Below, piece by piece: positions 11,395-63,663 of a stretch of 64,000 nucleotides of DNA; position 1 is the first letter of the stretch; each line of letters starts with the position of its first letter. The notes under the pieces were generated by a model. The model did not search any database, was not told the origin of the DNA, and saw nothing but the letters and a program-made list of their open reading frames with translations. Position numbers and translations under genes: made by a program. Location: NCBI GenBank assembly GCA_965116155.1, contig OZ220488.1:977103-1041102 (forward strand). Reading direction: 5' to 3'. Origin of the DNA: Bdellovibrionales bacterium (GTDB lineage Bacteria > Bdellovibrionota > Bdellovibrionia > Bdellovibrionales > UBA1609).

Positions 11395-11697
11395 TTAGAG
11401 CGCTAGGAAAATGCCATGTGGGACGCTTGTCTGGTATCCTTGGCTTTGACGGGAGTGTAGCAAATGAGGTCACGTTTCATTCGTTTCCTCTGAGCAAGAC
11501 CGGGTGCAGGCGGCATTATTTACCTCGATTTAGAGTATCCTCATTTCAGGTACGCACTTAGCCCTCATTTGCAGGGCCATAGATAGCTGCATAGACCGCC
11601 AAAGCACCTCTTGGTTTTCCACTTGCCTGACGCACCCAAAGGTGCATTGCCAGGCTGCGCTGCATGCAAGAGGTGCTTGGGCTAGTCTGTAATTAAT
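11395..11697. repeat. Mosaic hairpin-repeat array
   Basis: TTAGAGCGCTAGGAAAATGCC terminus, long-hairpin module at 11460-11593, and a CCAAAGCACCTCTTG...CAAGAGGTGCTTGGGCTAGTCTGTAA hairpin ending at the stop of the next gene. Confidence 0.85.
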
Positions 11698-27715: not shown

Positions 27716-28398
27716 CTTTGCGTAAGCATAAAAGTGCCAGCAAAAATGTGTGAGCATAAAAGTGTTAGTGAGGGCGCTCGCACGTGCTGGATAGCTTCTG
27801 ACTTCAGCCCTACGCAGTCCAGCTGATAACGAAGGGCCCCGCAGGGGAACGAAGCGTCCAAACTCACTTCAAAGGCAGGGAGGCTGCGCTTCATACTCAA
27901 GTTTTCCATAGCGTTAAGACAATCTGGCAGGTCAGGTCACGCCTGGTTTTTTCGCGATCAATAAAGCCCGGCCGCAGGCGACATTACTTGTCTCAATTTA
28001 CCTACAATTGCACTTGCGAGTACGGGCTTAGACCTAACCTGCAGGGCCATAGATAGCTGCATAGACCGCCAAAACACCTTGTTATTCCACTTGCCTGAAG
28101 CGCCTGAAGGCACTTTACCAGGCTGCGCTTCATACTCAAGTTTTCCATAGCGTTAAGACAATCTGGCAGGTCAGGTCACGCCTGGTTTTTTCGCGATCAA
28201 TAAAGCCCGGCCGCAGGCGACATTACTTGTCTCAATTTACCTACAATTGCACTTGCGAGTACGGGCTTAGACCTAACCTGCAGGGCCATAGATAGCTGCA
28301 TAGACCGCCAAAACACCTTGTTATTCCACTTGCCTGAAGCGCCTGAAGGCACTTTACCAGGCTGCGCTTCATACTCAAGGTGTTTTGGCTAGTCTGTA
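27716..28398. repeat. Mosaic hairpin-repeat array containing a perfect 2 x 239 bp tandem duplication
   Basis: Units 27882-28120 and 28121-28359 look identical by eye. Each holds a long-hairpin module (27924-28063, 28163-28302). The array ends in CAAGGTGTTTTGGCTAGTCTGTAA, which encodes the last residues of the S41 protease. Confidence 0.95.
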
Positions 28399-30534
28399 AA
28401 GATCTCTCGCGATGTTGATGGCTTCTTGGATGCGGGCCTGCTCCATGTACTCTTTGTCTCGATCGGCTTGCTCACGTTTGTACTTTTGAGCACTCGTCAA
28501 AGAGGCACGCTGTTGCTTGGTTTTTTTCTTTTTGCTCTTTGCCTTTTGGTCGTCCTCTTTTAGCTCTTTTAAGATTTCGGACAAATAAATAAATTTAGCC
28601 CTTTTTTTGTTTTTGTCTTTTTTTACCTGGGTTAAGATTTTTTTAAATTTTTTGTCCTGCTTTAACCTTTTGCGCGAAGCCGCTTTTAGTTTAGACACCA
28701 CGGCTCGGCTTAGCTTTTGCCAGGTGGGCTTTCTATGCTCGGCCTTATCCACAAAACTTGCGATTCTGGCAGACCCTAACACATAATCCAAACTCTGCTC
28801 GCCCCATTTGCTCATAGCATCATAACGGCTAGGCAAAACCACATCACCCATAACTCCCACATTTTGTGTAGACTGCCCACCTGCTGTAAAAAATAAGCCC
28901 GAAGTCACTTTTAAGGCCCCCAGCTTACCCTTAGGGCAACCCACGGCATTTACCTCCTGCACACTGCCCTTGCCAAAAGTGCGCGCACTGCCCACCACCA
29001 AGGCGCGGCCGTAATCACGCAAAGTGCCCGCCACAATCTCACTCGCACTAGCGCTGCCACGAGAGGTCAGCACCACCAATGGGCCCGACCACACCACATC
29101 GGCGTCTTTATCCAAGTAGTCTATATATTTGTAACGCACCTCCTTAGAGCGCCGACGCGTTTTTTGCCTCTGCGACTGCTTTACGACATTGGGTTTGCGC
29201 AAAAACAAACCCGCCACCTTAACGGCTTCGTCTAACAACCCACCACCATTAAAAGACACATCCAGCACCACCGCCTTAGCGCCCCGCAACTTTGCCGCTT
29301 GAAGCAATTTGCGCACATCTTTCGACGCTGCTACATCACGCGAACCCTGATAAAAAGACGGCAAATCAATCACCGCCACACTGACCTCTTGGCCACCCAG
29401 CTTGCGCGTACGGTAATGCACCTTGGCCCGCTGCTCCTCGAGGCTGATTTTTTTGCGGGTTAACGCAATAACAAACTGCTCAGGACCTTTGTCTGTTGTG
29501 CGCAAAATACCCAGCCGCACCACCGTGCCAGCAGGGCCACGGATTTTTTTAACCACATCATTCAAGTCTACGTCCCGCACTAGCTCCATAGGGCCACTCA
29601 CCCCCTGACCCACTTGCACGATTTTATCCTCTGCCTCCATTTGGCCCGACTCCATAGCCGCGCCCCCCGGCAACAAACGGTTTACAACCGTAAAGCCATC
29701 CTGAAAACTCAACTCCGCCCCAATTCCAGAAAGCGACAGCTGTGTGTTAATTTGCAAAGACTCCAGATCAGACTGTGTCATATACAAAGAGTGCGGATCC
29801 AAGGCCTTTGTAAAAGCCTGCAAATACGACTCGAGCAGCACTTGGCCAGAGGCGTCCTTTTGAGCCTTTTGCAGCATGCGCTCGTAGCGCCTTAAAATTC
29901 TGCCTTTAACTTTTTTCAGCTCATCGCCCGACGCCACCAGCTGAGCCACCAATAACTGCAAGTTGCGCCTAGTCTCTAGCCTCTGCACCGATACCGTTTT
30001 AGGCCACTGGCGATCCTTAGTATCTAGCAAAACACGGGTCCTAGGCTCCAAACGAAAAGTCTCCGGCGCCAGCTCCCGACGCACAAAGTTCACCACCTCT
30101 TGTAGGCGCTTTACATAAAGAGCATGCACCTTTTGCAAAACGGAGCAGTTTTTTCTGTCAACCTGCGCAAACACCCCTCGCATCCATTTGCGCACCTGCC
30201 TAGTATCGCTTTTTAAAAAAAACCTTTTCGAAGGGTCTAGGTGATCAATATAACGCTCAATGGTGCGGTTCTCTAGCTCTGTATTAAGGCCCACAAAACT
30301 CACATGCCGCGACAGGGCTTCGGATTTAATATATTTGACCGAAGCGCAAGAGAGCTCCCTTTGTTCCACCGGGCACATAAAGCTAAGGCTCTTGGCAATA
30401 GCCGACAAGGCCTGAGCCTCAGCGCGCGCACCAAAAGCCCCAAGGCTTAAAAAGAGCATGCAAGTGGCAAAAAACACCCACCAGTTGCGTGCCTTACGTC
30501 CAAACCCCATAGCCCTTACAGCACCATCCAACAC
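28375..30534 (-). CDS. prc: carboxy-terminal processing (tail-specific) protease, S41 family
   Basis: PDZ-like region followed by the S41 catalytic region (LTSRGSASASEIVAG, Ser; FGKGSVQ, Lys) and a lysine-rich C-terminal extension. Confidence 0.8.
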   Translation of the reverse strand: MLDGAVRAMGFGRKARNWWVFFATCMLFLSLGAFGARAEAQALSAIAKSLSFMCPVEQRELSCASVKYIKSEALSRHVSFVGLNTELENRTIERYIDHLDPSKRFFLKSDTRQVRKWMRGVFAQVDRKNCSVLQKVHALYVKRLQEVVNFVRRELAPETFRLEPRTRVLLDTKDRQWPKTVSVQRLETRRNLQLLVAQLVASGDELKKVKGRILRRYERMLQKAQKDASGQVLLESYLQAFTKALDPHSLYMTQSDLESLQINTQLSLSGIGAELSFQDGFTVVNRLLPGGAAMESGQMEAEDKIVQVGQGVSGPMELVRDVDLNDVVKKIRGPAGTVVRLGILRTTDKGPEQFVIALTRKKISLEEQRAKVHYRTRKLGGQEVSVAVIDLPSFYQGSRDVAASKDVRKLLQAAKLRGAKAVVLDVSFNGGGLLDEAVKVAGLFLRKPNVVKQSQRQKTRRRSKEVRYKYIDYLDKDADVVWSGPLVVLTSRGSASASEIVAGTLRDYGRALVVGSARTFGKGSVQEVNAVGCPKGKLGALKVTSGLFFTAGGQSTQNVGVMGDVVLPSRYDAMSKWGEQSLDYVLGSARIASFVDKAEHRKPTWQKLSRAVVSKLKAASRKRLKQDKKFKKILTQVKKDKNKKRAKFIYLSEILKELKEDDQKAKSKKKKTKQQRASLTSAQKYKREQADRDKEYMEQARIQEAINIARDLYRLAKTP

Positions 30535-30644: not shown

Positions 30645-30947
30645 TGTTTCCATAGCGTTAAGACAGTCTGGTCGCGATAGGCCTAAAGATCACCTATCGC
30701 TACAGGCTCATAGATAGCTGTCTAGCGCGCAATATTACCTTGAAGCCTACGTTTGCCATCTTGGCTAATGCCCTATGGGCAGCCAAGATGGCTGCACTCT
30801 CAGGTTCAAGGGTAACATTGCTGGCGCTTTTATGCTTACGCCAGCTGCATAGACCGCCAAAACACCTTTTTATTCCGCTGGCCTGGCGCACCTAAAGGCG
30901 CTTGACCAGGCTGCACTTCATGCTAAGGTGTTTTGGCTAGTCTTTAA
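30645..30947. repeat. Mosaic hairpin-repeat array
   Basis: CCATAGCGTTAAGACAGTCTGG + short hairpin + CAGGCTCATAGATAGCTGTCTAGCGCGC + GCCATCTTGGCT...AGCCAAGATGGC hairpin + TTTTATGCTTACGCC + CCAAAACACC...GGTGTTTTGGCTAGTCTTTAA. The final TTA is the ybgF stop. Confidence 0.85.
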
Positions 30948-38730: not shown

Positions 38731-39831
38731 ATGAAAAAACCATTCGACCCCCAATTTAACATAAGTCCCCAGCTGCTAAAGTATTTAATGCAAATCGAAA
38801 AAGCCAGGGGCTTTTTAGAAGCAGCTAACCTATCGCCAAAATGGCTCAAGCAAATGAGCCAAAACGCTCTGCTGCTAGAAACACACCATACAACGCACAT
38901 AGAAGGCACTGAGCTGACTTTGGAACAATCTAAAAAGATACTATCCGGCAAAAAAATACCTGGCGTCAGTGAGCACGATATAAAAGAAGTTAAAAACTAT
39001 AGAGACGCTTTTGGAGTTTTGTCTGATTATTTAAAAACAAACACTAATATTAGCGAAGCCTTGATTAAATCAGTGCACAAAGAACTAGTTAAGGGCGTGC
39101 GCGGAGGCCAGGCCAAACCGGGTAAATATAGAGACATACAAAACTATGTAGGCAACTCGGTTACAAAAAAAATTATCTACATGCCCCCCAAGCCAGCTGC
39201 AGTACCTGCTCTTATGAAAAACTTTGTAGCTTGGGCCAACCAAGAGTCAGACCTACACCCTGTTATAAAAAGTGGCATCATTCAGTTTCAATTTGTACAT
39301 ATTCATCCTTTTGTTGATGGCAATGCACGGACATCTAGGCTGCTGTGTGCGTTTTACCTGTATAAGTCAGATTATGATTTTAAAAGGCTTTTTTCTATTA
39401 GTGAGTATTATGACAAGGACAGGGTTAATTTTTATAATGCTATTCAGTCCGTAAGAGAAAACAACATGGATATGACACCATGGCTAGAGTATTTTGCCAA
39501 AGGACTTTTGTTTCAAATGACTAGCGTTATAGATATAGGAAAAAAAGTAATTCTGAAAGATGCTCTAAAACAAAACCGCAACCTTTCAAATAGGCAAACT
39601 CTAATTTTAGAGCACATTCTTGAAAACGGAACACTAAAACCACAAGATTTTAAAACCTTATGCAATAAAATAGAAAAAACAAAAAACACCCCTAATAAGC
39701 CCATTAACATAAGAACATTGCAAAGAGACATAAAGGACTTAATAGATAAAAAAATCATAATATCTTACGGCGCCACCAGCAAAAGGTCTTATAGCTTAAA
39801 ACCGAGTTGGCTTAAGGGGCCTTCTAAGTGA
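38731..39831 (+). CDS. fic: Fic-family protein (class II, N-terminal inhibitory motif) with C-terminal winged-helix-like region
   Basis: Fic motif HPFVDGNARTSR (Ala where the canonical motif has the second Gly). N-terminal TTHIEG fits the (S/T)xxxE(G/N) auto-inhibition motif. AT-rich relative to neighbours by eye. Confidence 0.85.
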   Translation: MKKPFDPQFNISPQLLKYLMQIEKARGFLEAANLSPKWLKQMSQNALLLETHHTTHIEGTELTLEQSKKILSGKKIPGVSEHDIKEVKNYRDAFGVLSDYLKTNTNISEALIKSVHKELVKGVRGGQAKPGKYRDIQNYVGNSVTKKIIYMPPKPAAVPALMKNFVAWANQESDLHPVIKSGIIQFQFVHIHPFVDGNARTSRLLCAFYLYKSDYDFKRLFSISEYYDKDRVNFYNAIQSVRENNMDMTPWLEYFAKGLLFQMTSVIDIGKKVILKDALKQNRNLSNRQTLILEHILENGTLKPQDFKTLCNKIEKTKNTPNKPINIRTLQRDIKDLIDKKIIISYGATSKRSYSLKPSWLKGPSK

Positions 39832-39843
39832 GACCCGATTTTA

Positions 39844-40000
39844 TTTTGCAACCTATACAGCTTACGCCCAATTAAAGCGCTAGCAAAAACTCTTTAAGCA
39901 GTAAGTGCAGTCCCCTTGGCCCCCATAAGAGGGCAGTTAAGGGGACGAAACGAAGGCCTTAAAGAGTTTTTGCGACCTATACAGCTATCAACGCGCCGGT
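39844..40000. repeat. Mosaic hairpin-repeat array, left part (interrupted by the IS3 element)
   Basis: TTAAAGCGCTAGCAAAAACTCTTTAAG...CTTAAAGAGTTTTTGC hairpin, then GACCTATACAGCTATCAACGCGCCGGT. The uninterrupted continuation ...CGCGCCGGTAGCTTTGGG is seen at 63528-63547. Confidence 0.8.
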
Positions 40001-40068
40001 TGGACTTCCCCAAATTTCATGGACACTTTTTATCGCTTGAGCGAAGGTGTATGACCCTTCCTTAAAGT

Positions 40069-40953
40069 TTAGACAGATTTCAGAGTTAGTTTTGGCCTTA
40101 CTCTGGCTCTGTTTTTCCCTAGAAAGCTGTTAATAAAGGCTTCTGGGGTAGAGTTACCGAGCGATGAGTGCGGCCTACATTTGTTATAGTCTTTTCTCCA
40201 CGTTTCCACAATAGATCTAGCATCATCCAAGCTTGAAAAGCAATTTCCCCTAAGGCACTCGTCTCGCATTTTTCCATTAAAACTCTCTATAAATCCATTT
40301 TGACTCGGCTTTCCTGGCTCAATATAACTGAGCTCAACCTTATTCTCAAAGGCCCATTGATCAAAGTTTTTACTTGTAAACTCTGTCCCATTATCCACCC
40401 GTATAAACTCAGGCACAGGATAATAGCGCCTCTTGGAATTTAAAAAACCCACCAGCTTCCTTGAATCAATTGCGTAGTCAACAAAAGAACCTATGCATTT
40501 TCTCGAAAAAATATCCAATACATTCAGTATACGAATTTTCTTTCCATCGCGAAGCCTGTCTTGCATAAAGTCCATTGCCCAAACCTGATGAGGACGCTCC
40601 GCAAGTGGCAGAGTATGCCGTATATGCTTCGCCCTTTTCTTTTTGTTCTTTCTACGAAGCTGAAGCCCTGCCGAAACATAGTAACGATAAAGAGTATTCC
40701 TAGCCACCTTCACTCCCTCTCGCATTAAAAGCACGTGCAAACGCTCATAGCCAAATCTCGGCCGATCCCCAGAAAGCTCTATAAGACGCTTCATAATCAC
40801 TTCCCTTTTAGACCTCTGCCTATGCCTCTTCTTATAATAAAAAGACGCCCTGTTGAGCCCTAAGACCTTGCAAACCCTTTTGACTGAAACTTTATACCTA
40901 GATATTAAAACTTTAGCCGCATTGGTACGAATGCAAGGTCTTAGAACTTTTTT
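40069..40953 (-). CDS. IS3 transposase OrfB (DDE catalytic part, expressed as OrfAB by -1 frameshift)
   Basis: The -1 frame is open from the heptamer A_AAA_AAG at 40947-40953. DDE region: WAMDFMQD ... [10 protein letters not shown] ... [17 protein letters not shown]. Confidence 0.85.
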
Positions 40954-41210
40954 TCAAGAACATCCTGCAGCATCTGCTTGTCTAAAGTCAGATTAGCAAC
41001 AATTTTCTTCAACCTTGAATTCTCATCCCTCAAACTCCTTAGCTCTTTTATTTCACTCACATCCATACCAGAATAAAGCTTTTTCCAGCGATACAATGTA
41101 GTCTCTGTAACCTCAAGCCTCCTGCATAGATCTTTGCCCGAAATCCCGTTCTCCAATTGCTTCAAGGCACATATAATCTGACCATCACTAAACTTTCTGC
41201 CTCTTGCCAT
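40941..41210 (-). CDS. IS3 transposase OrfA (HTH)
   Basis: 89 aa with a helix-turn-helix region and a leucine-zipper-like C-terminus. The frame ends just after the slippery site at 40947-40953. Confidence 0.85.
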
Positions 41211-41272: not shown

Positions 41273-41380
41273 GGTAGCTTTGGGCGGTCAGTAGGCCCAA
41301 AGCGTTCAGACTCTCTTTAAAAGCACTGAGGCTGTTCCAGGAGCGCCGCTTAGTCCCAGAAAATTCTGCTAGCGCTCTAA
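41273..41380. repeat. Mosaic hairpin-repeat array, right part
   Basis: GGTAGCTTTGGGCGGTCAGTAGGCCCAAAGCG...CCCAGAAAATTCTGCTAGCGCTCTAA, homologous to 61212-61320 and 63534-63643. The terminal CTA is the htrA stop. Confidence 0.85.
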
Positions 41381-42987
41381 CTTTCTAGAAAAACGGGGTA
41401 GCGGCGGTGTTGGCGCTGAATTAATAGCACGTTTACTTGCCCCTTTTTTAACCCACGAGCCACGTTTTTAGGAGACAGGGTTTTCTTTTTGTTTACCTGT
41501 AAAATAACATCCCCCGACTGCAGGCCCGCACGCGCTGCGGGCGAATTGGCATAAACCTGCACCACCACTACACCCACATTAGGCACGGTGTCCGGCAAGT
41601 TAAACTTGCTCTTTAAACGCGAATTTAAAGCCGACATCAAAAACCCAAAGTTATGCGGCGCTGGCTGCCCCTTTTCGCCCGTGCCTTTACGATAAAGCCG
41701 ATCCACCTTTTCGTCCCTTGGGTCTTTAACCAAAACCACACTCAACTCTAACTCCTTAGGAGCCGCTCCCTGCGAGTGTGGACGCAAAACCTTGAGTGAC
41801 AATTTTTTATCCACCGGACTGTCTTGCACCACATTGCGTAAGTCCATAAAGCTTTTAACAGCTTTGCCACCTAGCTCCACAATCAAATCGTATGTGCTCA
41901 CCCCAGCTCGAGCCGCTGGGCTGTCCGCCTGCACTTGCGTAATAAAAGCCCCCCTAACCACCGACCCACGGCCATCTTTAAAACCAAAATACTGCGCAGC
42001 CTGCAAATTTAGGTCCTGACCCCCCACGCCTAACCAAGCGCGTATGATCTTGCCATACCTTTTTAAGGCCGGCAAAATCTCTCTTACCTCATCAATAGGT
42101 ATGGCATAACCTATGCCCTGAGCGGCCGCGTTAATGGCAGTGTTAACACCCACAGCCTCGCCGTTTAAATTTAAAAGCGGCCCCCCAGAGTTACCAGGAT
42201 TAATGCTCGCGTCTGTCTGTATAAAAGGTATAGAGTTCAGCTGCTCGATCTTCCTGCCAATATAAGACACCACACCCACAGTGACCGTATTGCTTTGTCC
42301 CAAAGGGTTCCCTATAGCCGCTACCCATTCTCCCACCTCTAGGTTAGAGCTTTTGCCCAAAACCACCGTGGGCAATTTGCGATCCACATTAACCTTAATC
42401 AAAGCAATGTCCGTGCGGGCATCTTGACCCACTACATCGGCTTTGTAAGTTTTTGTATCCCCCATAAATTGCACCAAAATACTACTGCCACGACCCATAA
42501 TCACATGGTTGTTGGTAATAATGTGCCCGTCAGACCCTATGACAAAGCCCGAGCCATTGCCCAAAACCCTGCCAGGCGGCGCCGACTGTGCAGGGCGCAC
42601 GTCACCCGCGGCAGGAGGCGCACTCATAGGGCGCAAGTGCTTAAAAAGTTCCTGAAAAGGATCTAAATGAAAAAACGGATGCGTCTGCGGCCCAGGGTGC
42701 GGGCTAAAAAACGGATTCCCCGGTCTAACGCCAGGTGCACCACTACTATCGGTTAAAGTAATACTCACAACCGCAGGGTTTGCCTTGCGTGCCAGGCGTA
42801 TAAATTGATCCGACGCAATGGGATCGCCTTTTTTAACCCGCTTAAAATCCGGGCGCGCTCCCACCAAGGGCACCCAAGAGCCCCCAAAAGCAAGCGCCAA
42901 AACAAAGCCCAGCCCCACAAGCCCAAAAGAGAGGGCCGCTTTTTTTAGCTTATAAAGCGCTAGCCACAATTTAACCTGTGCCTTCAA
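41377..42987 (-). CDS. htrA: periplasmic serine endoprotease DegP/HtrA family with two PDZ domains
   Basis: Catalytic motifs (ITNNHV, TDIALIK, GNSGGPL) followed by two PDZ-like segments. Confidence 0.85.
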   Translation of the reverse strand: MKAQVKLWLALYKLKKAALSFGLVGLGFVLALAFGGSWVPLVGARPDFKRVKKGDPIASDQFIRLARKANPAVVSITLTDSSGAPGVRPGNPFFSPHPGPQTHPFFHLDPFQELFKHLRPMSAPPAAGDVRPAQSAPPGRVLGNGSGFVIGSDGHIITNNHVIMGRGSSILVQFMGDTKTYKADVVGQDARTDIALIKVNVDRKLPTVVLGKSSNLEVGEWVAAIGNPLGQSNTVTVGVVSYIGRKIEQLNSIPFIQTDASINPGNSGGPLLNLNGEAVGVNTAINAAAQGIGYAIPIDEVREILPALKRYGKIIRAWLGVGGQDLNLQAAQYFGFKDGRGSVVRGAFITQVQADSPAARAGVSTYDLIVELGGKAVKSFMDLRNVVQDSPVDKKLSLKVLRPHSQGAAPKELELSVVLVKDPRDEKVDRLYRKGTGEKGQPAPHNFGFLMSALNSRLKSKFNLPDTVPNVGVVVVQVYANSPAARAGLQSGDVILQVNKKKTLSPKNVARGLKKGQVNVLLIQRQHRRYPVFLES

Positions 42988-42999: not shown

Positions 43000-43437
43000 C
43001 TACGCCTTGTCTGCCGCCCCATTAAGCGACTCCTTGGCCGCCTTTGCGTCTGCTGCTTTTTGTTTTTCTGCCACAAATTTAATCTGTAAATCTTGCACAA
43101 CCTTAGACAAAAACTCATTCTCCCCCGCGTCTAGGTTGCCTTTGGTTTTGTCTTGCAACATTAGCAGCAGATCAATATTAAACCTAGCCGTGTTGAGATC
43201 TACTTTTTTCTCATTAGTACCAGGGTGCGGCACCAGGCCCATAAAAACAGTGGCCGAGCTCGCAATCGACACCACCAAGGCATTAAAATTAGCCTTGCCC
43301 AAAACGGCAGCCCTATCAGGCGCACGCGGCGCCTCGTTTTTAGCCGCTGCGGGCTTTTCTTCTGGCGACACTTCCAAAACCTCCTCCCAAAACAAACAGG
43401 CCATTTGTATCTTAGTTTCTAAGTTTGCGCAAGGCAC
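43000..43437 (-). CDS. DUF1844-like protein
   Basis: FNALVVSIASSATVFMGLVPHP...DLNTARFNIDLLLMLQDKTKGNL...FLSKVVQDLQIKF resembles DUF1844. The start is uncertain (GTG 43437 or ATG 43404). Confidence 0.55.
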   Translation of the reverse strand: MPCANLETKIQMACLFWEEVLEVSPEEKPAAAKNEAPRAPDRAAVLGKANFNALVVSIASSATVFMGLVPHPGTNEKKVDLNTARFNIDLLLMLQDKTKGNLDAGENEFLSKVVQDLQIKFVAEKQKAADAKAAKESLNGAADKA

Positions 43438-43488
43438 TTTGGTAATTCAGTTTCGACAAATAATGCAGCCATTTCAAGTGGTTATCCT

Positions 43489-43608
43489 GTCTCTGCCTTT
43501 TGACATCTGCCTTTTAATCAGATTAGACCGCACAAACTCTTGCGGGCAGGGGGCCACCACCTGAGCCCCTTTCAGGGGCGCTCGGAGGCATGTAACGCGG
43601 CGCATTAA
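43489..43608 (+). repeat. Direct repeat copy 1 flanking the AbiE cassette (120 bp, with a 14-bp internal duplication)
   Basis: GTCTCTGCCTTTT(GACATCTGCCTTTT)AATCAGATTAGACCGCACAAACTCTTGCGGGCAGGGGGCCACCACCTGAGCCCCTTTCAGGGGCGCTCGGAGGCATGTAACGCGGCGCATTAA. The terminal TTA is the abiEii stop. Confidence 0.9.
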
Positions 43609-44462
43609 TAGTGCTCTAGCATTTTGTTGATAGTCAAAATTGTATCTTGAAATGTCTTTGGCAGCTTGAGGTTTGTAGCCATTGGCCCCAAACCATTAAT
43701 ATGCCTTGACCACTGCCTCTCCAAATTTTTAAGTGCAACTTCAGAGTATTGTATTGGAAAATCCTTTTGAGTTTTGCGCCTTCTAAAGGTTTCCTCTATA
43801 GCTGTGAGTAGGGTTTTTTTATCTAAAAGCTCGCCCTTTTTTGTCAAAAGATAAAGATCATGGAAGTCCTTCATTCTACTATTTATGCCGCCTCTTATTA
43901 CAAGGGTTTGCAGTTTTTCTGCAAAAATATTTTCAACAGGATAACAATTGAGTTTGATTTTTTCTTCAAAAATAGGCTCATCTTTATATGCCAACAAGGG
44001 CATGGTAATAATTTTTGGATTTATTTTGTCTCCAACACCAAGATCCATTTGCAAATGATCTTTTATTGGCCACACACTGTGCCAAATGACTAAATTAACT
44101 CTGAAGCCATTACAAATCATATGATTATGCGCCAATATATCAACCTTATGAAGATCAAAACTAAACCCATCACCAACATCTATCGAACATATCTTTTTAA
44201 AAACAGACTCCAGTTTTTTAATTTCTAAATTGATATAGGTTAGTTCAAAATCTAAGTCCTTTGTTTCTCGACCAATGAAAATATAGTAATTTAATAGGTG
44301 ACCACCCTTGAGCAAAAACTGGCCTTTAAATTGAGACTTGGACAGTCTGACCAAAAACCTCTCAAGAAAACATTTTTTTAAAACCTCGTTAAATCTTTGG
44401 TTGTTTGAAGCTGCAATGTTTCTTATTTTATCTTTAAAGACTTGCTGAGAAATGTTCCTCAT
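43605..44462 (-). CDS. abiEii: AbiEii/AbiGii-family nucleotidyltransferase toxin (type IV TA)
   Basis: 285 aa. The N-terminal FLLKGG...D.DF-type nucleotidyltransferase pattern (FLLKGGHLLN...TKDLDFE) is typical of AbiEii. 4-nt overlap with the upstream antitoxin gene. AT-rich by eye. Confidence 0.75.
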   Translation of the reverse strand: MRNISQQVFKDKIRNIAASNNQRFNEVLKKCFLERFLVRLSKSQFKGQFLLKGGHLLNYYIFIGRETKDLDFELTYINLEIKKLESVFKKICSIDVGDGFSFDLHKVDILAHNHMICNGFRVNLVIWHSVWPIKDHLQMDLGVGDKINPKIITMPLLAYKDEPIFEEKIKLNCYPVENIFAEKLQTLVIRGGINSRMKDFHDLYLLTKKGELLDKKTLLTAIEETFRRRKTQKDFPIQYSEVALKNLERQWSRHINGLGPMATNLKLPKTFQDTILTINKMLEHY

Positions 44463-45070
44463 ATGGTTGTTGCCATTTCAATATACGGTGTTATGTTAAT
44501 ACGAAGCTTTCTTGAAAGTGTTTCTAGTTTGTTCATATCAATGTCTACCTTGGTTGAAGAAAAAGCAGACCTCAGTGCTTTAATAGCAGTTTCTAGACTG
44601 AGAAATTTAAAAGACTCTAGTATCACTCGCTCAACACAGTATATTGAAATAGAGACATCCCCAATATCTATGCTGCTTATACCAACACTATGATTGCGAG
44701 ACCGTATTATTTTAACACTCGCCCTTTTTTTAAGAGAGGTTGCATGAGGAACCGATATCCAGTGAAAACGAGGAATCTCTTCTGTCAGATTGTATAGCGC
44801 CAGTGCAGAAGTTCCTGTAACAACCGCGCTTGGTATTTCAAGCGCACAAAAGACTAGGTCTTCCCACTCAATACTAATCTGAGGCGGATGGCCCTTGGGG
44901 ATGTACAGACCTCGCCCGATCTTTTCAAGTGCGCCAAGTTTTTTATAATGGTATAGCAGGCTTGCGGAAAACCCGTTTTCTACAAAGTCAGCGGTGGTGA
45001 TAATCTTTTTTTGAAGAATACCTTTAACTGCATCTAGTTTAACGGTGTGAGATGCGCTGTTTTTGCCCAT
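44459..45070 (-). CDS. abiEi: AbiEi-family antitoxin / transcriptional regulator
   Basis: 203 aa with an N-terminal wHTH-like segment (ITTADFVENGFSASLLYHYKKLGALEKIGRGLY). The position and ATGA overlap with abiEii match the AbiE operon layout. Confidence 0.65.
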   Translation of the reverse strand: MGKNSASHTVKLDAVKGILQKKIITTADFVENGFSASLLYHYKKLGALEKIGRGLYIPKGHPPQISIEWEDLVFCALEIPSAVVTGTSALALYNLTEEIPRFHWISVPHATSLKKRASVKIIRSRNHSVGISSIDIGDVSISIYCVERVILESFKFLSLETAIKALRSAFSSTKVDIDMNKLETLSRKLRINITPYIEMATTI

Positions 45071-45077
45071 ATCCTAT

Positions 45078-45122
45078 CTTAATAAATAAACCCATTGCTG
45101 TCAAATGGGTTTATTTATTAAG
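45078..45122. promoter_or_regulatory. Perfect 19-bp inverted repeat (7-nt spacer) 8 nt upstream of the abiEi start
   Basis: CTTAATAAATAAACCCATT gctgtca AATGGGTTTATTTATTAAG. No adjacent U-tract on either strand, so an operator or 5'-UTR structure is more likely than a terminator. Confidence 0.45.
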
Positions 45123-45160
45123 CCCTGGGCCTGTGGCGCAGGGCCAAAGGGAGCATCACG

Positions 45161-45264
45161 GTCTCTGCCTTTTAATCAGATTAGACCGCACAAACTCTTG
45201 CGGGCAGGGGGCCACCACCTGAGCCCCTTTCAGGGCGCTCGGAGGCATTAACGCGGCGCATTAA
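45161..45264 (+). repeat. Direct repeat copy 2 flanking the AbiE cassette (104 bp)
   Basis: Same sequence as 43489-43608, minus the 14-bp internal duplication and two 1-nt indels. Confidence 0.9.
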
Positions 45265-45283: not shown

Positions 45284-45323
45284 CTTTTCTTTTCTTTTCT
45301 TTTCTTTTCTTTTCTTTTCTTTT
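45284..45323. repeat. Pentanucleotide microsatellite (CTTTT)8
   Basis: Eight perfect units, ending 72 nt upstream of the ATG of ankyrin gene 45395. Confidence 0.95.
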
Positions 45324-45394: not shown

Positions 45395-47272
45395 ATGTTT
45401 CACACTTCTCAAAAAATGGTTTTGGGCAAAATGGCTTTGGGGCTTGTGTTTTTTGTAGGCCTTGCTTTTAGTAATTTAGGCATCGCCGACACAAAGACCA
45501 CCACTACCGACTACACAAGCCAAATCAACCAAGCCGTGGACAAAGATGGCCGTACCGCTTTACTGACGGCGCTAGACGTATATCAAAGGTGGGATCTAGA
45601 GCTAGATAAAGTAGAATCTCTTCTGGCCGCAGGTGCGGACCCTAATATCGCGAATAACGATGGCTACACTCCGCTGATGGCAGCGAGCTACCATTGGCTC
45701 AAAAAGGAAATGAAGCTCTTGCTTGAGCATGGCGCGGACCCTAATGCAAAGGATAAGCGCGGTCACACTGCCTTGTACTATTTTATGCATCACGTTGGGG
45801 ATCAATTTGCCAACGAGTCCTATATGGAAATTAAGCACGATGCAATTTGGATGCAAGAACTCATCAGCGCCGCAAGCCTCTTGATTGAGGCAGGTGCTGA
45901 TATCAATATGGCGGACAAATATGACCGCACGCCCTTAATTTTTGCAGCACGAAGGGGCTACACGCGGTTGGTAAAATACTTGCTCCAACAGGGCGCTAAC
46001 CCCAATCCACAATCTAAAGTACATCATAGGCCCGTACTTTCAGGTCCACCTCAGAGACAAGATGGCGCTTCGGCCCTTATACATGCCATAAACGACGGCA
46101 GATCCGCTAAATCGGCAACTGCCTTAATTAAAGCAGGGGCCGATGTCAATGCAGTGGACGCCGACAACTACACAGCCCTTATGCATGCTGTTCAGTACGG
46201 TGTTTTGCACGGTGAGCTCCGCAACCTAATAGAGCCTTTAATTGACGCTGGAGCTGATGTAAACGCAGTAAATAACGAAGGCTACACTGCACTAGAAATG
46301 GCAGTATCCCTGAATGATCCGTATGCAGTAACACGATTGCTGGGGCGTGGACTTAGTTTGGGCGTTAAAACTGATGGCGTTAACACGACTAAGGCTATCA
46401 TTATGGCGGCTCGCGACAACTATGCAGAGGTGTTAAGAACTATTATTGACGACAGCACCGCCGATGTGAATGCAGTCCTTCACGACGACAGCATAGTTGA
46501 CACGCCATCGGGATCACCGGCTCTTGTGGTAGCGGCTGCAAACGATTCAAAAGATGCCGTATGGGATTTGTTATACGCAAAAGCTGACCCCAATAAAACG
46601 GATGCATCTGGAAGAACAGCCCTTATGCTATCAACCAGTACAGATGTGATGGGCCTTTTAATTAAGCACGGGGCGGATGTCGATGCTACTGATAACAGGG
46701 GCCAAACGGCCTTAATAAGGAGCATTATTGACCGTCAAGATACGAAACTTGCGCAGTTCTTACTAATCCATCGCGCGAACCCTAACGTAGCCGATACAGT
46801 GAACGGCAAGACTGCTCTCATGTATGCAGCAGAACTAGGTAAAGAAAAAACAGTTAAATACTTGCTTGCAGCAGGTGCGGATGTAAATTCCCTTGGCGGG
46901 ATAAGAACCTCCAGCAAAACCCCAGCCTTAATATACGCCGCACGTGCTCACAAAAAACAAAAAAGCGTAGGCATTGCAAGGGCCTTACTTGCAATGGGAG
47001 CTGATCCTAATGCAAGAGACCTCAGTGGAGACACCGCCCTTATGTATGCAGCCCTCCAAGGTAATAAAGAACTAATCTCTCTTCTAATAGCTAATGGCGC
47101 CAGGCTGAGCGCCACAAACAACGGGCGTACAGCTATGATGGTAAACCGGACAAACCTAACCAGATCCGAAAGACTAAAAATATCAAAACATCTATTTAAG
47201 CAAAGTCTAAAGAGCATAGATGCAAAAATCACCACCGCACCCTGTGCTAACTTGCTCCGCACTGGTACTTAA
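45395..47272 (+). CDS. secreted ankyrin-repeat protein (about 14 or more ANK repeats)
   Basis: AAGGGAG RBS. Signal peptide MALGLVFFVGLAFSNLGIA. Many G-TALM-A...G....V..LL..GAD.N units. The last 26 nt overlap the convergent gene. Confidence 0.85.
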   Translation: MFHTSQKMVLGKMALGLVFFVGLAFSNLGIADTKTTTTDYTSQINQAVDKDGRTALLTALDVYQRWDLELDKVESLLAAGADPNIANNDGYTPLMAASYHWLKKEMKLLLEHGADPNAKDKRGHTALYYFMHHVGDQFANESYMEIKHDAIWMQELISAASLLIEAGADINMADKYDRTPLIFAARRGYTRLVKYLLQQGANPNPQSKVHHRPVLSGPPQRQDGASALIHAINDGRSAKSATALIKAGADVNAVDADNYTALMHAVQYGVLHGELRNLIEPLIDAGADVNAVNNEGYTALEMAVSLNDPYAVTRLLGRGLSLGVKTDGVNTTKAIIMAARDNYAEVLRTIIDDSTADVNAVLHDDSIVDTPSGSPALVVAAANDSKDAVWDLLYAKADPNKTDASGRTALMLSTSTDVMGLLIKHGADVDATDNRGQTALIRSIIDRQDTKLAQFLLIHRANPNVADTVNGKTALMYAAELGKEKTVKYLLAAGADVNSLGGIRTSSKTPALIYAARAHKKQKSVGIARALLAMGADPNARDLSGDTALMYAALQGNKELISLLIANGARLSATNNGRTAMMVNRTNLTRSERLKISKHLFKQSLKSIDAKITTAPCANLLRTGT

Positions 47273-49421: not shown

Positions 49422-49450
49422 AAGAGCGTGTCGGCAAAATTAAACCAAAA

Positions 49451-50159
49451 TTAGAGTGCTAGGAAAATGCCATGGGATTAAGCGCATCTTCCTGGTAACC
49501 CCTGAAAGGGGTGTCCACCAGGAAGATAAGCGTCCCACATGGCATTTTCCGGCCTATAAGGAGTCTATGGCCCTGTAAATCGAGTGAAAGCGGCGCACCT
49601 GAAATGAAGCTCGTGTAGAACAAGGCAAATAACCACGCCTGCGGCCGGATGCGCTTGGTTAAGGTGAGCTGAGCGGACTCGATTTACCACACTTCCGTCA
49701 AAGATATGAACACCTCTTGCATGAAGCGCAGCCTCCTTGGCTAACGCGTCTTAAGGCGCTGCCAATGGGACACATAGTCGCTTCATAGGTCGCCACATGC
49801 TCTGATGCTTACGCAGCTAGCGCTCTGATTTGGGTTTACTCAATGCACGGGGCCTTGACGGGAGTGTGGTAGCCTTGGGTCTATCGAGCACCCAAGGCTA
49901 CAGGCTCATAGATCCCTTATTAGCTGTCTAGCGCGCAAAAATGCTTCAGGCAGGACCACTTGTCCATCTGATGGCCCGCGCCTAGAGGCGCTATCAGCTG
50001 GACTGCGTAGGGCTGAAGTCATTTTTGCTGGCGCTTTTATGCTTACGCTTATAGGTCGCAGAATTTTCTGCGGGACGCTTGCTACCATCGCGGCCGCACC
50101 CTACAGGGTGCTGCGATGATAGCGCCGCTTTGTCCCAGAAAATTCTGCTAGCACTCTAA
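49451..50159. repeat. Mosaic hairpin-repeat array (about 0.7 kb)
   Basis: TTAGAGTGCTAGGAAAATGCC...GGCATTTTCC hairpin, reverse-oriented long-hairpin module (~49565-49715), GCTCTGATGCTTACGCAGCTAGCGCTCTGA, short hairpin GCCTTGGGT...ACCCAAGGC, TTTTGCTGGCGCTTTTATGCTTACGC, and terminal CTAGCACTCTAA inside the 3' end of the next ORF. Confidence 0.85.
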
Positions 50160-50904
50160 TACTGGTGTATTTCTCTATAGAGGATCTGAGCAAAAAAGTC
50201 GCATGCTTAAGTGATACGGCTTGGGTGGTTAAAAGCAACTCTATTGCACCCGTGCCATAGGCATCGTTATGCGCATACACACCGCGCACAAAATGCATCC
50301 CAAAACACCTCATAAGACCACGCCAAAAACAAGCCCACAAATGAGTCGCTATATGTGTAGAAGGCAAGCGCGGATGGTATTGCTCGAATAACAAAAACCT
50401 CACCACAGCATCTATTTTGCGGGTTATAAAAAACCCCGCCCCCATAGCCTGCATAATAAACAAACCATAAAAGCTCGCCCTATGGGTTAAAAAACACATC
50501 TGATACGCCAGCAGCGCCTTTATATCCATCGGCAGTAAATTATTCAGCAAATGCTCTGACAGCACAATATGCCCTTGCCGAGTAAAAGACGAAAACGCAT
50601 AACAAAGCACCTTTGTACCCGGCACAATATGCAAATGCGGCCTAGATAACTTAAAGCCTTTTTGTTGCAAAATTTTGTGCCATTTTTCTATCTCAACCTG
50701 CACCCCCCAAGGATCGCGCCCCAGTGTTACGGGCGGCAGCGCCGACACAGATATCCTATACGCAAAATAAACCCCATACGCCCACGCACCGAGCACCAGT
50801 ATAAAAAACAGCGCCCCCATCGAGTACAAACTTTGCCCCAACACCCCTGCACCCACAGCCATGCCAAAGCAAATCGCTCCCAATACCAGCGCACGCCAAC
50901 TCAT
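50101..50904 (-). CDS. membrane protein with M48/HtpX-like fold but degenerate zinc motif
   Basis: Start trimmed to ATG 50904. ALLAYQMCFLTHRA sits where M48 peptidases have xxxAHELGHxxxxx. The C-terminal ~20 residues are read from repeat DNA. Confidence 0.4.
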   Translation of the reverse strand: MSWRALVLGAICFGMAVGAGVLGQSLYSMGALFFILVLGAWAYGVYFAYRISVSALPPVTLGRDPWGVQVEIEKWHKILQQKGFKLSRPHLHIVPGTKVLCYAFSSFTRQGHIVLSEHLLNNLLPMDIKALLAYQMCFLTHRASFYGLFIMQAMGAGFFITRKIDAVVRFLLFEQYHPRLPSTHIATHLWACFWRGLMRCFGMHFVRGVYAHNDAYGTGAIELLLTTQAVSLKHATFLLRSSIEKYTSIRVLAEFSGTKRRYHRSTL

Positions 50905-54061: not shown

Positions 54062-55861
54062 GTGACGGATTCCATAATACAGCACCACTCTACTTTTGTA
54101 CTCATGTGTGCCGGCATAGCAGCGTTTTTGTATGGCATGGGGCTTGTAAGCTCGAACCTTAAAAAACTCACAGCCAACCGCACAAAAGACCTTTTGCAAA
54201 ATCTGAGCAAACGTCCCCTTTGGGGTTGTGCAGTAGGGGCATTGCTTTCGGCCCTTATGCAGAGTGCAGGAGCGGTGAACACCATGCTAGTAGGCCTTGC
54301 CCAGGCTAGGGTGGTGAGCCTAAAGCAGGTCATCGGCGTGGTGCTAGGTGCCTCGGTGGGCAGCACTCTGACGGTGCAGCTGATCTCTTTGCAAGTTTAT
54401 CACTATGGGCTGGGGATTTTTGCCATAAGTTTTGCAGGGATGTTTTTTGCTAAGAAAATGCTCCTTAAAAGTAGCTGTCACGCGGCCATGGGAGTGGGGC
54501 TTTTGTTTATGGGCCTTGAGTGGATCAGCTTTAGCAGCATGGCGCTTAAACAGTCGCCGTTGTTTTTAAGCGCACTGGAGCAGCTATCGCATATGCCCTG
54601 GGCTGCCATGTTGGCTATGGCGGCTTTTTCGGCTTTGGCGCAATCGGCAACAGCGGGCTTAGGGCTTACGATCTCTTTTGCTACGGCGGGTGTTATTAAT
54701 TTTGAGCAAGCTCTTTACTGGGTGTATGGAGCCAATATTGGATCTACTGCTACGGCCCTTATGGCAGCTATTGGAGGCACAGCCGCTGCACGCCAAGTGG
54801 CTTGGTCGAACTGTGCTTTTAAAATCTGCTGCGTTGGGGTGTTTTACTTTTTAACTCCTTATGTTGCTGGATTTGTGCCTGGCTCTACTCCGCAGCGTTT
54901 AGTAGCTAATGCCCATACTTTGTTTAATCTTTTGGGTGTGTGCATGGCGCTACCCATAAGCCACTGGGTGGTGGGTTGGCTAGAGCGTAGTATTGGGCCT
55001 TCGGCAGCAGAGCGTAAATTTGATGTGCAATTTTTAAACAAGCCGCACTTTAACTCACTGCCTGTTAGGTTAACCCATGCGCGCCGCGAGGCCCTGCGCA
55101 CAGCGGATGTGTTTTTGTCGGTGCTAGATGATGCTATTTTGTTAATTCAAAACGAAAACACCGAGCTATGGTCTAGTGTAAAAAAACGCGTCAGGCATAT
55201 TGATTTTTTAAGTCTCGAGGTGAGTCGGTTTTTGGCTCGTGTTGCCCATAAGGCGCCCCCTCCCTTGGATACAGAGGTGATAAACGTTGTAGCCTTTGTG
55301 ACGGATGTTAAAAATGCCGCCAGTGTTATAGACAAACAACTGCGGGGCCAGGCGAAAAAAAAGCACAAACTCAAGCTTAATTTTCATGCGCAAAGTTTTA
55401 GCGAAATCCGCCGGCTCCACAAAGAAAGCCTCAACCTGTGCACTTTGTCTTTTAGTGCTTTTCAAAACTCCTTGCAAAGCCATGCTACGCACGAGCAGGC
55501 CATGCAGATTATGCGTCTTAAACGGCATATTAAAAAGTTCGAAGCCACTTTTAGGGTGCAGCATCTTAAGCGCGTGGCGGAGGGCAAAGAGCACTCTTCT
55601 GTAAGCCCGATGTATTTTGATATCATCACCAGCTTTCGCAAAATTTCCGGCCTGCTCAGCAACCACCTTAAGCCCTTACAGACTAGCCCAATATTCTGGG
55701 ATAAAGCGGCGGCGCGAGAGCAGCACCCTCAAAAGGGTGCGCCCGCGATGGCGCCAAGCGTCCCGCAGAATATTGGGCGGTCTATGCAGCAATCTATGGC
55801 CCTGCAGGTTAGACCTAAGCCCGTACCCGCAAGTGCAATTGATATTAACCAAGGCCAATAA
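54062..55861 (+). CDS. Na/Pi cotransporter family protein with PhoU-like C-terminal region
   Basis: Polytopic N-terminal half (QSAGAVNTMLVGLA, QSATAGLGLTISFA repeats) and a helical PhoU-like half. Roughly the last 60 codons (from ~55677) are read from repeat DNA, so the native C-terminus is uncertain. Confidence 0.8.
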   Translation: MTDSIIQHHSTFVLMCAGIAAFLYGMGLVSSNLKKLTANRTKDLLQNLSKRPLWGCAVGALLSALMQSAGAVNTMLVGLAQARVVSLKQVIGVVLGASVGSTLTVQLISLQVYHYGLGIFAISFAGMFFAKKMLLKSSCHAAMGVGLLFMGLEWISFSSMALKQSPLFLSALEQLSHMPWAAMLAMAAFSALAQSATAGLGLTISFATAGVINFEQALYWVYGANIGSTATALMAAIGGTAAARQVAWSNCAFKICCVGVFYFLTPYVAGFVPGSTPQRLVANAHTLFNLLGVCMALPISHWVVGWLERSIGPSAAERKFDVQFLNKPHFNSLPVRLTHARREALRTADVFLSVLDDAILLIQNENTELWSSVKKRVRHIDFLSLEVSRFLARVAHKAPPPLDTEVINVVAFVTDVKNAASVIDKQLRGQAKKKHKLKLNFHAQSFSEIRRLHKESLNLCTLSFSAFQNSLQSHATHEQAMQIMRLKRHIKKFEATFRVQHLKRVAEGKEHSSVSPMYFDIITSFRKISGLLSNHLKPLQTSPIFWDKAAAREQHPQKGAPAMAPSVPQNIGRSMQQSMALQVRPKPVPASAIDINQGQ

Positions 55862-56035
55862 TCACGCCTGCAACTGAACCTTATTAATCATATAAAACCA
55901 AGGCGTGGTCTGACCTGCCAGATTGCCTTAACGCCATGAACACCTGGAGTATGCAGCGCAGCCACCCTGACAGCCTCCTTTAGGAGGCGAGCACTCAGGA
56001 GTGGCAAACGGAATGTTATCAAGGTGTTTGGGGGA
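55677..56035. repeat. Mosaic hairpin-repeat array overlapping the 3' end of the Na/Pi cotransporter ORF
   Basis: TTACAGACTAGCCCAATATTCTGGGA...TCCCGCAGAATATTGGGCGG hairpin, reverse-oriented long-hairpin module (55794-55921), GCAGCCTCC TTTA GGAGGCGAGC hairpin, and CAAGGTGTTTGG. Confidence 0.85.
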
Positions 56036-59650: not shown

Positions 59651-60583
59651 TTAGGCTTTTAGTTTTGAAACCTCGTCTTGAGAGAGACCTGTTACCTCTG
59701 AAATCACAGAAAGCTTTAGCCCCTTTTTAAGCATATTTGCAGCCACCGCCACGCGTTCCTCTGCACGGCCTTCTTTTCGACCCGCCTCTTTCCATGGGTT
59801 GCCCATATTTTGCTCCCAAGCTTCAAAATATTCCTTTCTTGCCGCACCACTTGACTTTAACACACTCATCACCTCCTCATGGTCTATCCCACAAACGCTC
59901 GAAACATAAGTTACCACATGCTGCATCAGGTTTGTACTGTCATTGTCATCCAAATGGCCGAAAATTTGCCTAAAAAATTCACGCCTTTCTCTTCCTGCCA
60001 TATCACCAAACTGTTGCACCTTCAAAAGCGCGTACAAAATAGAATAAAGTGCATCCTTAGGCGGCCATAAAGGTTGGTCTAGGCGCTCAAGATCAAGTAC
60101 ATGGAACTGCAATAAAATGGAGTCTATGCTTTCTGCCTCAATATCGTGCATTACAATACCAAGCCCTGGTTTATGCCCCCTCTGCCACGAATCTCTGCCA
60201 TGGTAAAAAATGCAATTCAATACAATAGGGCGCTCCTTTTGAGGCTTAGATAACTCAAAATGCTTTATGGCTACTCCATAATCAGCCATTTGCCGGTACG
60301 TTTTTTTAGGATCGCGTTGATGCTTGTGTTCTAATAAGATATAAATTGGCCTAGTGTTTTTAAGCTTTCCTAGTAATAGCAAGTCTGCTTCTTTGCCTAT
60401 AGTAGGCAAAGAAGCATCCTGCTTAACCAGGCCTTTAATGTCCAACACCTCCTGCACGCTTTGAGGCAGCCAAAATTTTAGCAGCGCCCTCGTATAACCC
60501 TTATCCTTAAAACAACTCCGGAAGAAACGATCATGCGTGTTGGTGTAGTGTGTGTTTAAACTTGCTTTTCTTTCTGGTGCCAT
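59651..60583 (-). CDS. Rpn/YhgA-like PD-(D/E)XK recombination-promoting nuclease (putative transposase family)
   Basis: N-terminal HDRFFRSCF...LLKFWLP...EADLLLLGKL...IYILLEHKHQ pattern, typical of the Rpn/transposase_31 family. Confidence 0.7.
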   Translation of the reverse strand: MAPERKASLNTHYTNTHDRFFRSCFKDKGYTRALLKFWLPQSVQEVLDIKGLVKQDASLPTIGKEADLLLLGKLKNTRPIYILLEHKHQRDPKKTYRQMADYGVAIKHFELSKPQKERPIVLNCIFYHGRDSWQRGHKPGLGIVMHDIEAESIDSILLQFHVLDLERLDQPLWPPKDALYSILYALLKVQQFGDMAGRERREFFRQIFGHLDDNDSTNLMQHVVTYVSSVCGIDHEEVMSVLKSSGAARKEYFEAWEQNMGNPWKEAGRKEGRAEERVAVAANMLKKGLKLSVISEVTGLSQDEVSKLKA

Positions 60584-61211: not shown

Positions 61212-61320
61212 GGTAGCTTTGGGTGGTCAGTAGGCCCAAAGCGTTCAGACTCTCTTTAAAAGCACTGGGAGGCTGCTCTAGGAGCGCCGCTTATCCCAGA
61301 ATTTTGGACTAACACTCTAA
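61212..61320. repeat. Hairpin-repeat module ending 20 nt before an ankyrin start codon
   Basis: GGTAGCTTTGGGTGGTCAGTAGGCCCAAAGCG...CCCAGAATTTTGGACTAACACTCTAA. Same module as 41273-41380 and 63534-63643. Confidence 0.85.
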
Positions 61321-61340
61321 CTTGTTAAAGGAAACCCACC

Positions 61341-63294: not shown

Positions 63295-63643
63295 GTGTGT
63301 GCGGGCTTAAAGTTGAGGCAGCAAAGGGCCGAAAGATCACACAAGGCTACAGGCTCATAGATGCCGTATAGACTGCAAAATTCTCTGCGGGACGCTTGGT
63401 CCGTAAGGATTAGAGTGTTAGCCACATGCTCTGGGCCAAGCGCAGTCTGCCTGATAGTCCCTGCAAGGGACGACCATCAGGTAGACAAGTGCCCCACAGA
63501 GCATGTGGCGGCCTATAAGGCTAACAACGCGCCGGTAGCTTTGGGTGGTCAGTAGGCCCAAAGCGTTCAGACTCTCTTTACAAGCACTGGGAGGCTGCTC
63601 TACCGCCGCCGCTCTACCTCAGAGAATTTTACTAGCGCCCTAA
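63295..63643. repeat. Mosaic hairpin-repeat array ending 20 nt before an ankyrin start codon
   Basis: Short hairpin, AAAATTCTCTGCGGGAC, TTAGAGTGTTAGCCACATGCTCTGGG...CCCACAGAGCATGTGG hairpin, GGCCTATAAGG, AACGCGCCGGTAGCTTTGGGTGGTCAGTAGGCCCAAAGCG, and ...CAGAGAATTTTACTAGCGCCCTAA. Confidence 0.85.
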
Positions 63644-63663
63644 TTGCTTTAAAGGAGAACAAC

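Follow-up and report, generated by a model that had tools for sequence, protein, structure and literature searches.

How a complete abiE operon came to lie between two nearly identical direct copies of a ~104-nt sequence is the question raised by a locus of a Bdellovibrionales bacterium (GTDB lineage Bacteria; Bdellovibrionota; Bdellovibrionia; Bdellovibrionales; UBA1609; NCBI GenBank assembly GCA_965116155.1). The locus is part of a 64,000-nt stretch of contig OZ220488.1 (positions 977,103 to 1,041,102 of the forward strand), which we refer to as the window and whose numbering is used throughout. The initial annotation of this DNA had offered two origins for the arrangement, a cassette gained or lost by recombination between repeat copies, or one inserted with a long duplication. 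The second fits our data best and has a published precedent among restriction-modification (R-M) systems (PMC2853133). On balance, we favor the view that a resident intergenic module of ~104 nt received the abiE operon at its end and was duplicated as a whole, that is, an insertion with long target duplication.

The two copies of the repeat unit have the same orientation (+ strand). Copy A (43489-43608, 120 nt, GC content 0.567) adjoins the start of a DUF1844 gene, and copy B (45161-45264, 104 nt, GC content 0.577) adjoins the upstream region of an ankyrin-repeat protein gene. Global alignment of the copies revealed zero substitutions, their differences being three indels. A run of 14 nt (GACATCTGCCTTTT, 43502-43515) was present only in copy A, in which TCTGCCTTTT consequently occurs twice, and copy A also has a single surplus G at each of two places, one in the G-run at 43575-43578 and one at 43592. 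A core of 72 nt (43506-43577, corresponding to 45164-45235) was 100% identical between the copies. Probes of 16-37 nt taken from three parts of the unit matched the window at copies A and B only, two matches were obtained in 0 of 100 shuffled controls, and the window held no third copy of the 104-nt unit. The description of two direct, near-identical copies was therefore borne out by alignment, probes and shuffles, whereas two of its details were correct only in part. The "14-bp internal duplication" does correspond to 14 extra nucleotides in copy A, but these form no exact tandem copy; 10 nt are repeated, with 4 nt as a spacer. Similarly, the "hairpin-rich" unit does contain local palindromes (TAATC-A-GATTA; CCGCA-N8-TGCGG; GAGCCCCT..AGGGGCGCTC; TTAATGC-GCC-GCGTTAA; and the 11-nt palindrome TAATCAGATTA), but its predicted folds, which consist of three or four small hairpins, were no better than those of shuffled sequences (z-scores of -0.2 to -1.3).

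Two known kinds of repeat were considered for the unit and set aside. The possibility that it is the 3' end of an RNA gene serving as an attachment (att) site was ruled out, as the unit contained no tRNA or tmRNA and no Rfam family at the gathering threshold, the best match being sub-threshold noise (E=0.09, 18.6 bits against a cutoff of 88). A composite transposon or a pair of miniature inverted-repeat transposable elements is disfavored, as the unit lacks terminal inverted repeats and the bracket a short outer target duplication. We also noted two spurious open reading frames (ORFs) on the + strand, at 43007-43564 and 45052-45222, that have a 20-residue C-terminus (LCLLIRLDRTNSCGQGATT) in common because both enter a copy of the unit. 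Automatic annotation could take these for paralogous small proteins.

The segment between the copies (43609-45160, 1552 bp) is AT-rich, with a GC content of 0.372 compared to 0.567 and 0.577 in the copies and 0.484 in the window, and profile searches (PF08843, PF17194 and PADLOC) confirmed that it carries only abiEii and abiEi, both on the - strand. The abiEii gene (43605-44462) encodes a full-length DUF1814 nucleotidyltransferase toxin of 285 aa that matched PF08843 (E=3.3e-36, profile positions 1-229 of 238) and the PADLOC AbiEii profile (E=2.1e-66). Its nucleotidyltransferase motif (KGG..x14..DLDF) is intact and was invariant in an alignment of homologues, and its C-terminus lies within 0-6 residues of the ends of those homologues. 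The abiEi gene (44459-45070) encodes the antitoxin and transcriptional regulator, a protein of 203 aa that matched PF17194 (E=3.2e-7) and, over the full length, PADLOC AbiEi (E=5.1e-51). The two genes overlap by 4 nt (ATGA), as they do in the homologous operons of two complete chromosomes among metagenome-assembled genomes (MAGs), here called L001 and L004. The insert is trimmed tightly around these genes, extending 90 nt upstream and not at all on the 3' side. In fact, the abiEii stop codon, TAA (the complement of 43605-43607), falls inside the TTAA that makes up the last four bases of copy A, a placement in the repeat terminus that had been correctly recognized beforehand.

The operon also has a regulatory region of its own. 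A promoter-like site (TTGACA-17 nt-TAAGAT, 45104 to 45076, - strand) lies upstream of abiEi and is enclosed by a perfect 19-nt inverted repeat (45078-45096 and 45104-45122), the near end of which is 8 nt upstream of the ATG of abiEi. At the L001 locus, whose AbiEii is 42-43% identical to ours, a similar palindrome (AATAAATCCA..TGGATTTATT, positions 5345-5391 of that sequence) likewise ends at this distance from the ATG, and the palindrome of our locus (AATAAATAAACCCATT...AATGGGTTTATTTATT) is recognizably conserved there. The palindrome at 45078-45122 is likely a candidate AbiEi operator conserved in this subfamily. It fits the autoregulation published for abiE, which acts through inverted repeats in the promoter (PMC7319586, PMC3985639). 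The right end of the insert is a GC-rich stretch of 38 nt (45123-45160) that contains CCCTG..CAGGG and had no match elsewhere in the window. The insert is a complete, self-contained abiEi-abiEii operon, predicted to be of the type IV toxin-antitoxin/abortive-infection kind. Like the AbiE systems of Dy et al. 2014 (PMC3985639) and Beck et al. 2020 (PMC7319586), it has a bicistronic organization with overlapping genes, a DUF1814 nucleotidyltransferase toxin with an intact motif, and an inverted repeat at its putative promoter. It differs from them in that its AbiEii is at most 47% identical to any database protein.

The cassette is foreign, presumably acquired horizontally, based on its low GC content and on the fact that its closest AbiEii relatives are both distant (≤47% identical) and from other lineages, many of them in Chlamydiota MAGs. 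At the DNA level, a search with the whole bracket returned one match, of 84 nt and 77% identity, inside the abiEii gene of a Lactobacillus plasmid, and apart from this short match no relative at the DNA level was found in plasmid, phage or viral collections. Long flanking direct repeats were absent from the homologous abiE loci L001 and L004. This rules out the repeat as a standard part of abiE operons and indicates that it belongs to the recipient site instead.

The intergenic regions of the window are mosaics of a few families of hairpin modules, each present in 5-11 copies and in both orientations (e.g., in the spacers at 1622-1713, 8746-8930, 10987-11430, 41273-41382, 49450-49540, 50016-50170, 55727-55970 and 63312-63653). 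Many of these modules begin at gene ends: in 15 of 48 genes the start of a module was at most 12 nt from the stop codon. In five of these 15 the stop TAG is part of TTAGAGCGCTAG, and other genes end with TAA abutting AGACTAGCC, or directly before GCGTAAGCAT. The initial annotation had likened the position of the abiEii stop codon to the arrangement of native genes. The likeness holds in so far as modules at stop codons are common here, but the modules found there are other ones than the unit.

Whether the unit belongs with these modules was less evident. BLAST comparisons of the unit with the abundant modules yielded matches of 13-17 nt only, and nhmmer searches with the unit gave nothing better than E=0.14 at other loci of the window, while >20 matches were obtained with a true module that served as the control. 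The weak nhmmer matches were mostly in module-bearing spacers, however, with co-linear alignments, and a plan common to the unit and the modules could be discerned, consisting of TAGRYCGC-loop-YGCGGG, a CCCT-loop-AGGG hairpin inside an outer stem, and GCGCCGC. A regular expression for the first of these elements matched only copies A and B of the unit and two modules, those at 50052 (+) and 55784 (-). Outside the window, a 23-mer of the unit (CCGCACAAACTCTTGCGGGCAGG) had 0 matches in genome, metagenome and viral contig collections, and probes for the abundant modules had 0 matches as well (one probe in the genome collection and a different one in the metagenome collection). The unit is thus native-style DNA, a private and diverged member (~50% identity) of the module superfamily; its GC content of 57% agrees with a native-style origin. 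The proposal that the bracket ties a defense or toxin-antitoxin module to the repeat system of this genome is supported only weakly, by the common architecture at ~50% identity, and is weakened by the lack of a third unit in 64 kb and by the nhmmer result (E=0.14). Beyond this resemblance, nothing observed here speaks for modules that themselves mobilize cassettes.

If module-like sequences are so common, the bracket could be a coincidence, brought about by two copies of a possibly mobile module landing beside the cassette or by the cassette landing between copies that already existed. "Chance insertion between repeated sequences" is indeed one of the classes that Furuta et al. distinguished for direct repeats (PMC2853133). 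The architecture of the unit, the frequency of module starts at stop codons (15 of 48 genes), the direct module pairs that flank ordinary genes, and the tendency of module blocks to duplicate, of which the window has two tandem examples, all speak for such an origin. The initial annotation had itself stated that the bracket would be coincidental if the unit were one more abundant module and direct pairs were common around ordinary genes. Direct pairs of abundant modules do exist, e.g., 28294-28399 and 30843-30947 (88% identical), which flank a Tsp protease gene, and 61212-61411 and 63534-63734 (80% identical). However, they are only 80-88% identical, and not ~100%, so that the abiE bracket is not a coincidence of that kind.

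A comparison of the window with itself places the bracket apart more generally. Among 73 repeat pairs of ≥50 nt (high-scoring segment pairs), the median identity was 80%, and only three pairs were ≥95% identical: the abiE bracket and two tandem duplications of module blocks. One of these tandem duplications is at 27881-28358 (period 239 nt, 100% identical) and the other at 10987-11390 (period 202 nt, 98-99% identical); in both, a partial third repeat starts after the second. These two show that local duplications occur in this genome. Considering its identity of ≥95% against the median of 80% for module pairs, the bracket is a recent, local duplication and not a pair of old dispersed copies. 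The zero substitutions between the copies of the unit, compared to identities of 67-88% in dispersed module pairs and of 67-93% among the copies within a module family, and the lack of a third unit in 64 kb, compared to 5-11 copies for the abundant families, likewise speak against a bracket formed from independent modules. In addition, the unit has neither terminal inverted repeats nor a target duplication of its own, and it is improbable that a cassette would land precisely where two tandem units already met. We therefore regard a coincidental or module-driven bracket as distinctly unlikely.

We hypothesize instead that the horizontally acquired abiEi-abiEii operon entered the divergent spacer between a DUF1844-HtrA operon and the ankyrin-repeat gene, precisely where a resident intergenic module of ~104 nt ends in TTAA. 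The DUF1844 gene (43000-43437, - strand) is the native left flank, with the gene for HtrA/DegP (41377-42987) next after it, and the ankyrin-repeat gene (45395-47272, + strand), which is divergent from DUF1844, is the native right flank. The joints of the insertion would have been 104 nt apart in the ancestral spacer, with the result that the whole unit was duplicated on both sides of the insert, presumably in the insertion event itself. Two routes can be envisaged. In the first, a break that was staggered or re-replicated over ~104 nt would have been joined to foreign DNA, at one joint by microhomology of TTAA. In the second, a circle carrying one copy of the unit would have been integrated by a single crossover of the Campbell type. 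After the duplication, the DUF1844 gene has 171 nt and the ankyrin-repeat gene 234 nt of upstream DNA, each including a full unit. As each gene retains a complete upstream unit, neither of the divergent promoter regions was truncated, which may be why the insertion was tolerated.

The recombination between copies that had been suggested at the outset as a means of gain or loss is plausible given the 72 nt of perfect identity. This core would allow RecA-type deletion or amplification of the cassette, and the toxin-antitoxin pair could in turn oppose its loss. In this regard, AbiE was reported to contribute to the stability of an integrative conjugative element (PMC11062541).

Insertion with long target duplication was named by Nobusato et al. 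2000 (Gene 259:99) and Furuta, Abe and Kobayashi 2010 (PMC2853133), and is known from many bacteria and from all four types of R-M systems. The direct repeats measured 46-423 bp, mobility genes were lacking, and the inserts were in some cases of low GC content (PMC2853133; PMC3874152). In two cases from Haemophilus influenzae, the duplicated sequence occurred nowhere else in the genome and touched a gene at its 3' end (PMC2853133; PMC3874152). When the abiE locus was viewed by the criteria of Furuta et al. 2010 (PMC2853133), we found a complete addiction module inside an insert of 1552 bp (<20 kb), flanking direct repeats of 104 and 120 nt (>30 bp) with high identity and, in scans of ORFs and against Rfam, no linked mobility gene and no repeat of the tRNA or att type. 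The locus resembles the R-M cases in being a small, selfish, addiction-type unit of a few kb that has no transposase or integrase inside and is flanked by direct repeats of host sequence. As in some of them, the insert is of low GC content, and its repeat also touches the 3' end of a gene. Unlike them, its cargo is an AbiE pair, and the duplicated target is a diverged member of a pervasive module family.

Several points weigh against this interpretation. The target duplication is inferred from one genome. The absence of extra units from 64 kb bounds their copy number in the 1.61-Mb genome only to below ~75. The precedents were rationalized by DNA breakage, for which the authors of the R-M studies suggested the restriction enzyme as a possible agent (PMC2853133). 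AbiEii is a nucleotidyltransferase and not a DNase, so a host-side process would be needed here. Finally, the copies differ by indels only, three in all, which could be errors of a long-read consensus, or else could be differences that already existed between a donor and a recipient unit, in which case a Campbell-type event would be favored.

The last point leads to a further explanation, in which the unit is an attachment site and a circular molecule of abiE plus one unit recombined with the resident unit, by the action of a recombinase encoded elsewhere (i.e., as a cis-mobilizable element without an integrase) or of RecA. A bracket flush with the ends of the cassette is what a Campbell-type integration would produce, and the indels lie on both sides of the 72-nt core, as expected of one crossover between slightly different units, which favors this explanation slightly. 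The 11-nt palindrome of the unit could bind a protein, and site-specific recombination is one of the three classes of direct repeats that Furuta et al. recognized around R-M genes (PMC2853133). We searched for genes of such a system with a Pfam scan of 32 large ORFs, including every ORF called between ~23.9 and 63.2 kb, and found no tyrosine or serine recombinase among them and no mobility gene inside the bracket. Moreover, no third unit and no other cassette beside a unit was present in the window, scans of genome, metagenome and viral collections did not find the unit, and an identity of 104 nt is long compared to a typical att core. This explanation also merely shifts the question to how the same arrangement originated in the donor. 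For these reasons we think it unlikely that the unit is an attachment site.

Among the ORFs scanned, the only other gene related to recombination was a YhgA-like/Transposase_31 gene (Rpn-type PD-(D/E)XK) at 59651-60583 (E=2e-17).

Small accessory cassettes without mobility genes, situated between conserved core genes in repeat-rich genomes as the abiE operon is here, are also known as cis-mobilizable elements (CIMEs) and Neisseria minimal mobile elements (MMEs), the latter exchanged by homologous recombination; the terms appear in PMC3787668 and PMC10745880. What defines an MME is that several strains have allelic cassettes between conserved flanks, and flanking direct repeats are not required; CIMEs need a cognate integrase and an att core; the comparison here is made from one genome.

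Toxin-antitoxin cassettes occur in chromosomal integrons, and the layout of the abiE locus resembles theirs, which raises the question of whether it is a gene cassette of that type, with the unit as its attC site, in a remnant like a cluster of attC sites lacking an integron integrase (CALIN). Integron cassettes of toxin-antitoxin genes likewise are ~1.5 kb long, bear their own promoter, and have direct repeats of ~100-120 nt with a stop codon at the repeat edge, as the two-gene cassette described here does. However, neither copy of the unit has a core site (RYYYAAC or GTTRRRY) on either strand. The ends of the unit pair over at most 7 nt, and it forms several small hairpins and not the one long imperfect hairpin of an attC site. 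There is no array, the unit being present in two copies only; the neighbors are housekeeping genes, and the ORFs scanned included no IntI-like gene. An attC identity of the unit was thus ruled out in the absence of core sites and of a single long hairpin, and an integron origin of the cassette is essentially refuted.

We also considered that the bracket could be an artefact of assembly, produced by an insertion that varies among strains or by a mis-join of metagenomic sequence. The source is apparently one contig of 1.61 Mb, and indels, which account for all the differences between the copies, are typical of errors in a long-read consensus. However, the joints on both sides are clean, abiEi and abiEii are intact with the canonical ATGA overlap, and the operator-promoter architecture is conserved. 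A mis-join, furthermore, would not produce a flush duplication of 104 nt around a complete operon. An artefact is accordingly very improbable.

The surroundings of the bracket provide some further context. Neighboring genes beyond those already described include those for TsaD, DapA/B, transaldolase, SecG, Tmk and HolB. The DUF1844-HtrA gene order also occurs, without abiE, in a distant relative, L005. This locus was rejected as an empty site for comparison because it is too distant: its DUF1844 protein is 44% identical, and the spacer next to its DUF1844 gene is unrelated AT-rich DNA. The closest relatives of the DUF1844 protein overall are ≤63% identical.

On the far side of HtrA lies a second low-GC import (38731-41210), consisting of a SoFic-type Fic defense gene (38731-39831, PADLOC SoFic E=4e-60, GC content 0.37) and an IS3-family element (40069-41210; OrfA at 40941-41210 and the rve-domain OrfB at 40069-40800) that is outside the bracket, 2.3 kb away from it. 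No long direct repeats were observed around the SoFic gene and the IS3 element, which indicates that a long-repeat bracket is no general feature of imports at this locus. As L005 likewise has a Fic gene just beyond HtrA-DHH, the neighborhood past HtrA may be a recurrent landing zone.

Between copy B and the ankyrin-repeat gene, we observed a perfect (CTTTT)x8 microsatellite (45284-45323) that lies 72 nt upstream of the start of the gene at 45395 and could act as a phase-variable promoter spacer. The window encodes a second ankyrin-repeat protein at 61341-62420 in addition to the one at 45395-47272, and the relatives of the DUF1844 protein include a ~61% identical entry labeled as a Pseudobdellovibrionaceae MAG. 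The two ankyrin proteins, the AbiEii relatives in Chlamydiota MAGs, the Pseudobdellovibrionaceae-labeled relative and the genome size of 1.61 Mb suggest that the organism is possibly a small-genome, host-associated member of the Bdellovibrionota that exchanges genes with other intracellular bacteria.

Overall, we infer from this single genome that the abiE bracket is a new example of a known structure, with AbiE in the place of an R-M system. A much bolder proposal would be that the hairpin modules are recombination sites of an undescribed cassette system, independent of an integrase or acting in trans, that inserts, amplifies and deletes defense and toxin-antitoxin operons, and that the native joints of stop codons and modules (15 of 48 genes) reflect the same activity. 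In a weaker form, it would hold that long target duplication is driven by the host, also for toxin-antitoxin modules that encode no nuclease. We consider this proposal a long shot. Were its weaker, host-driven form true, it would contradict the model of restriction breaks.

Long target duplication is a form of mobility without a known enzyme that has so far been rationalized by the breaks made by restriction enzymes. If our reading of the abiE locus is correct, insertion with long target duplication would extend beyond R-M systems, and a toxin that does not cut DNA would point to a mechanism on the side of the host, for which a staggered break, re-replication at structured intergenic DNA, and joining at microhomology are possible routes. 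It would also mean that a defense module can enter the divergent promoter region of a compact 1.6-Mb genome while both neighbors keep their upstream element, and that the 72-nt perfect repeats left by such an event would provide a built-in route for the deletion or amplification of the cassette.

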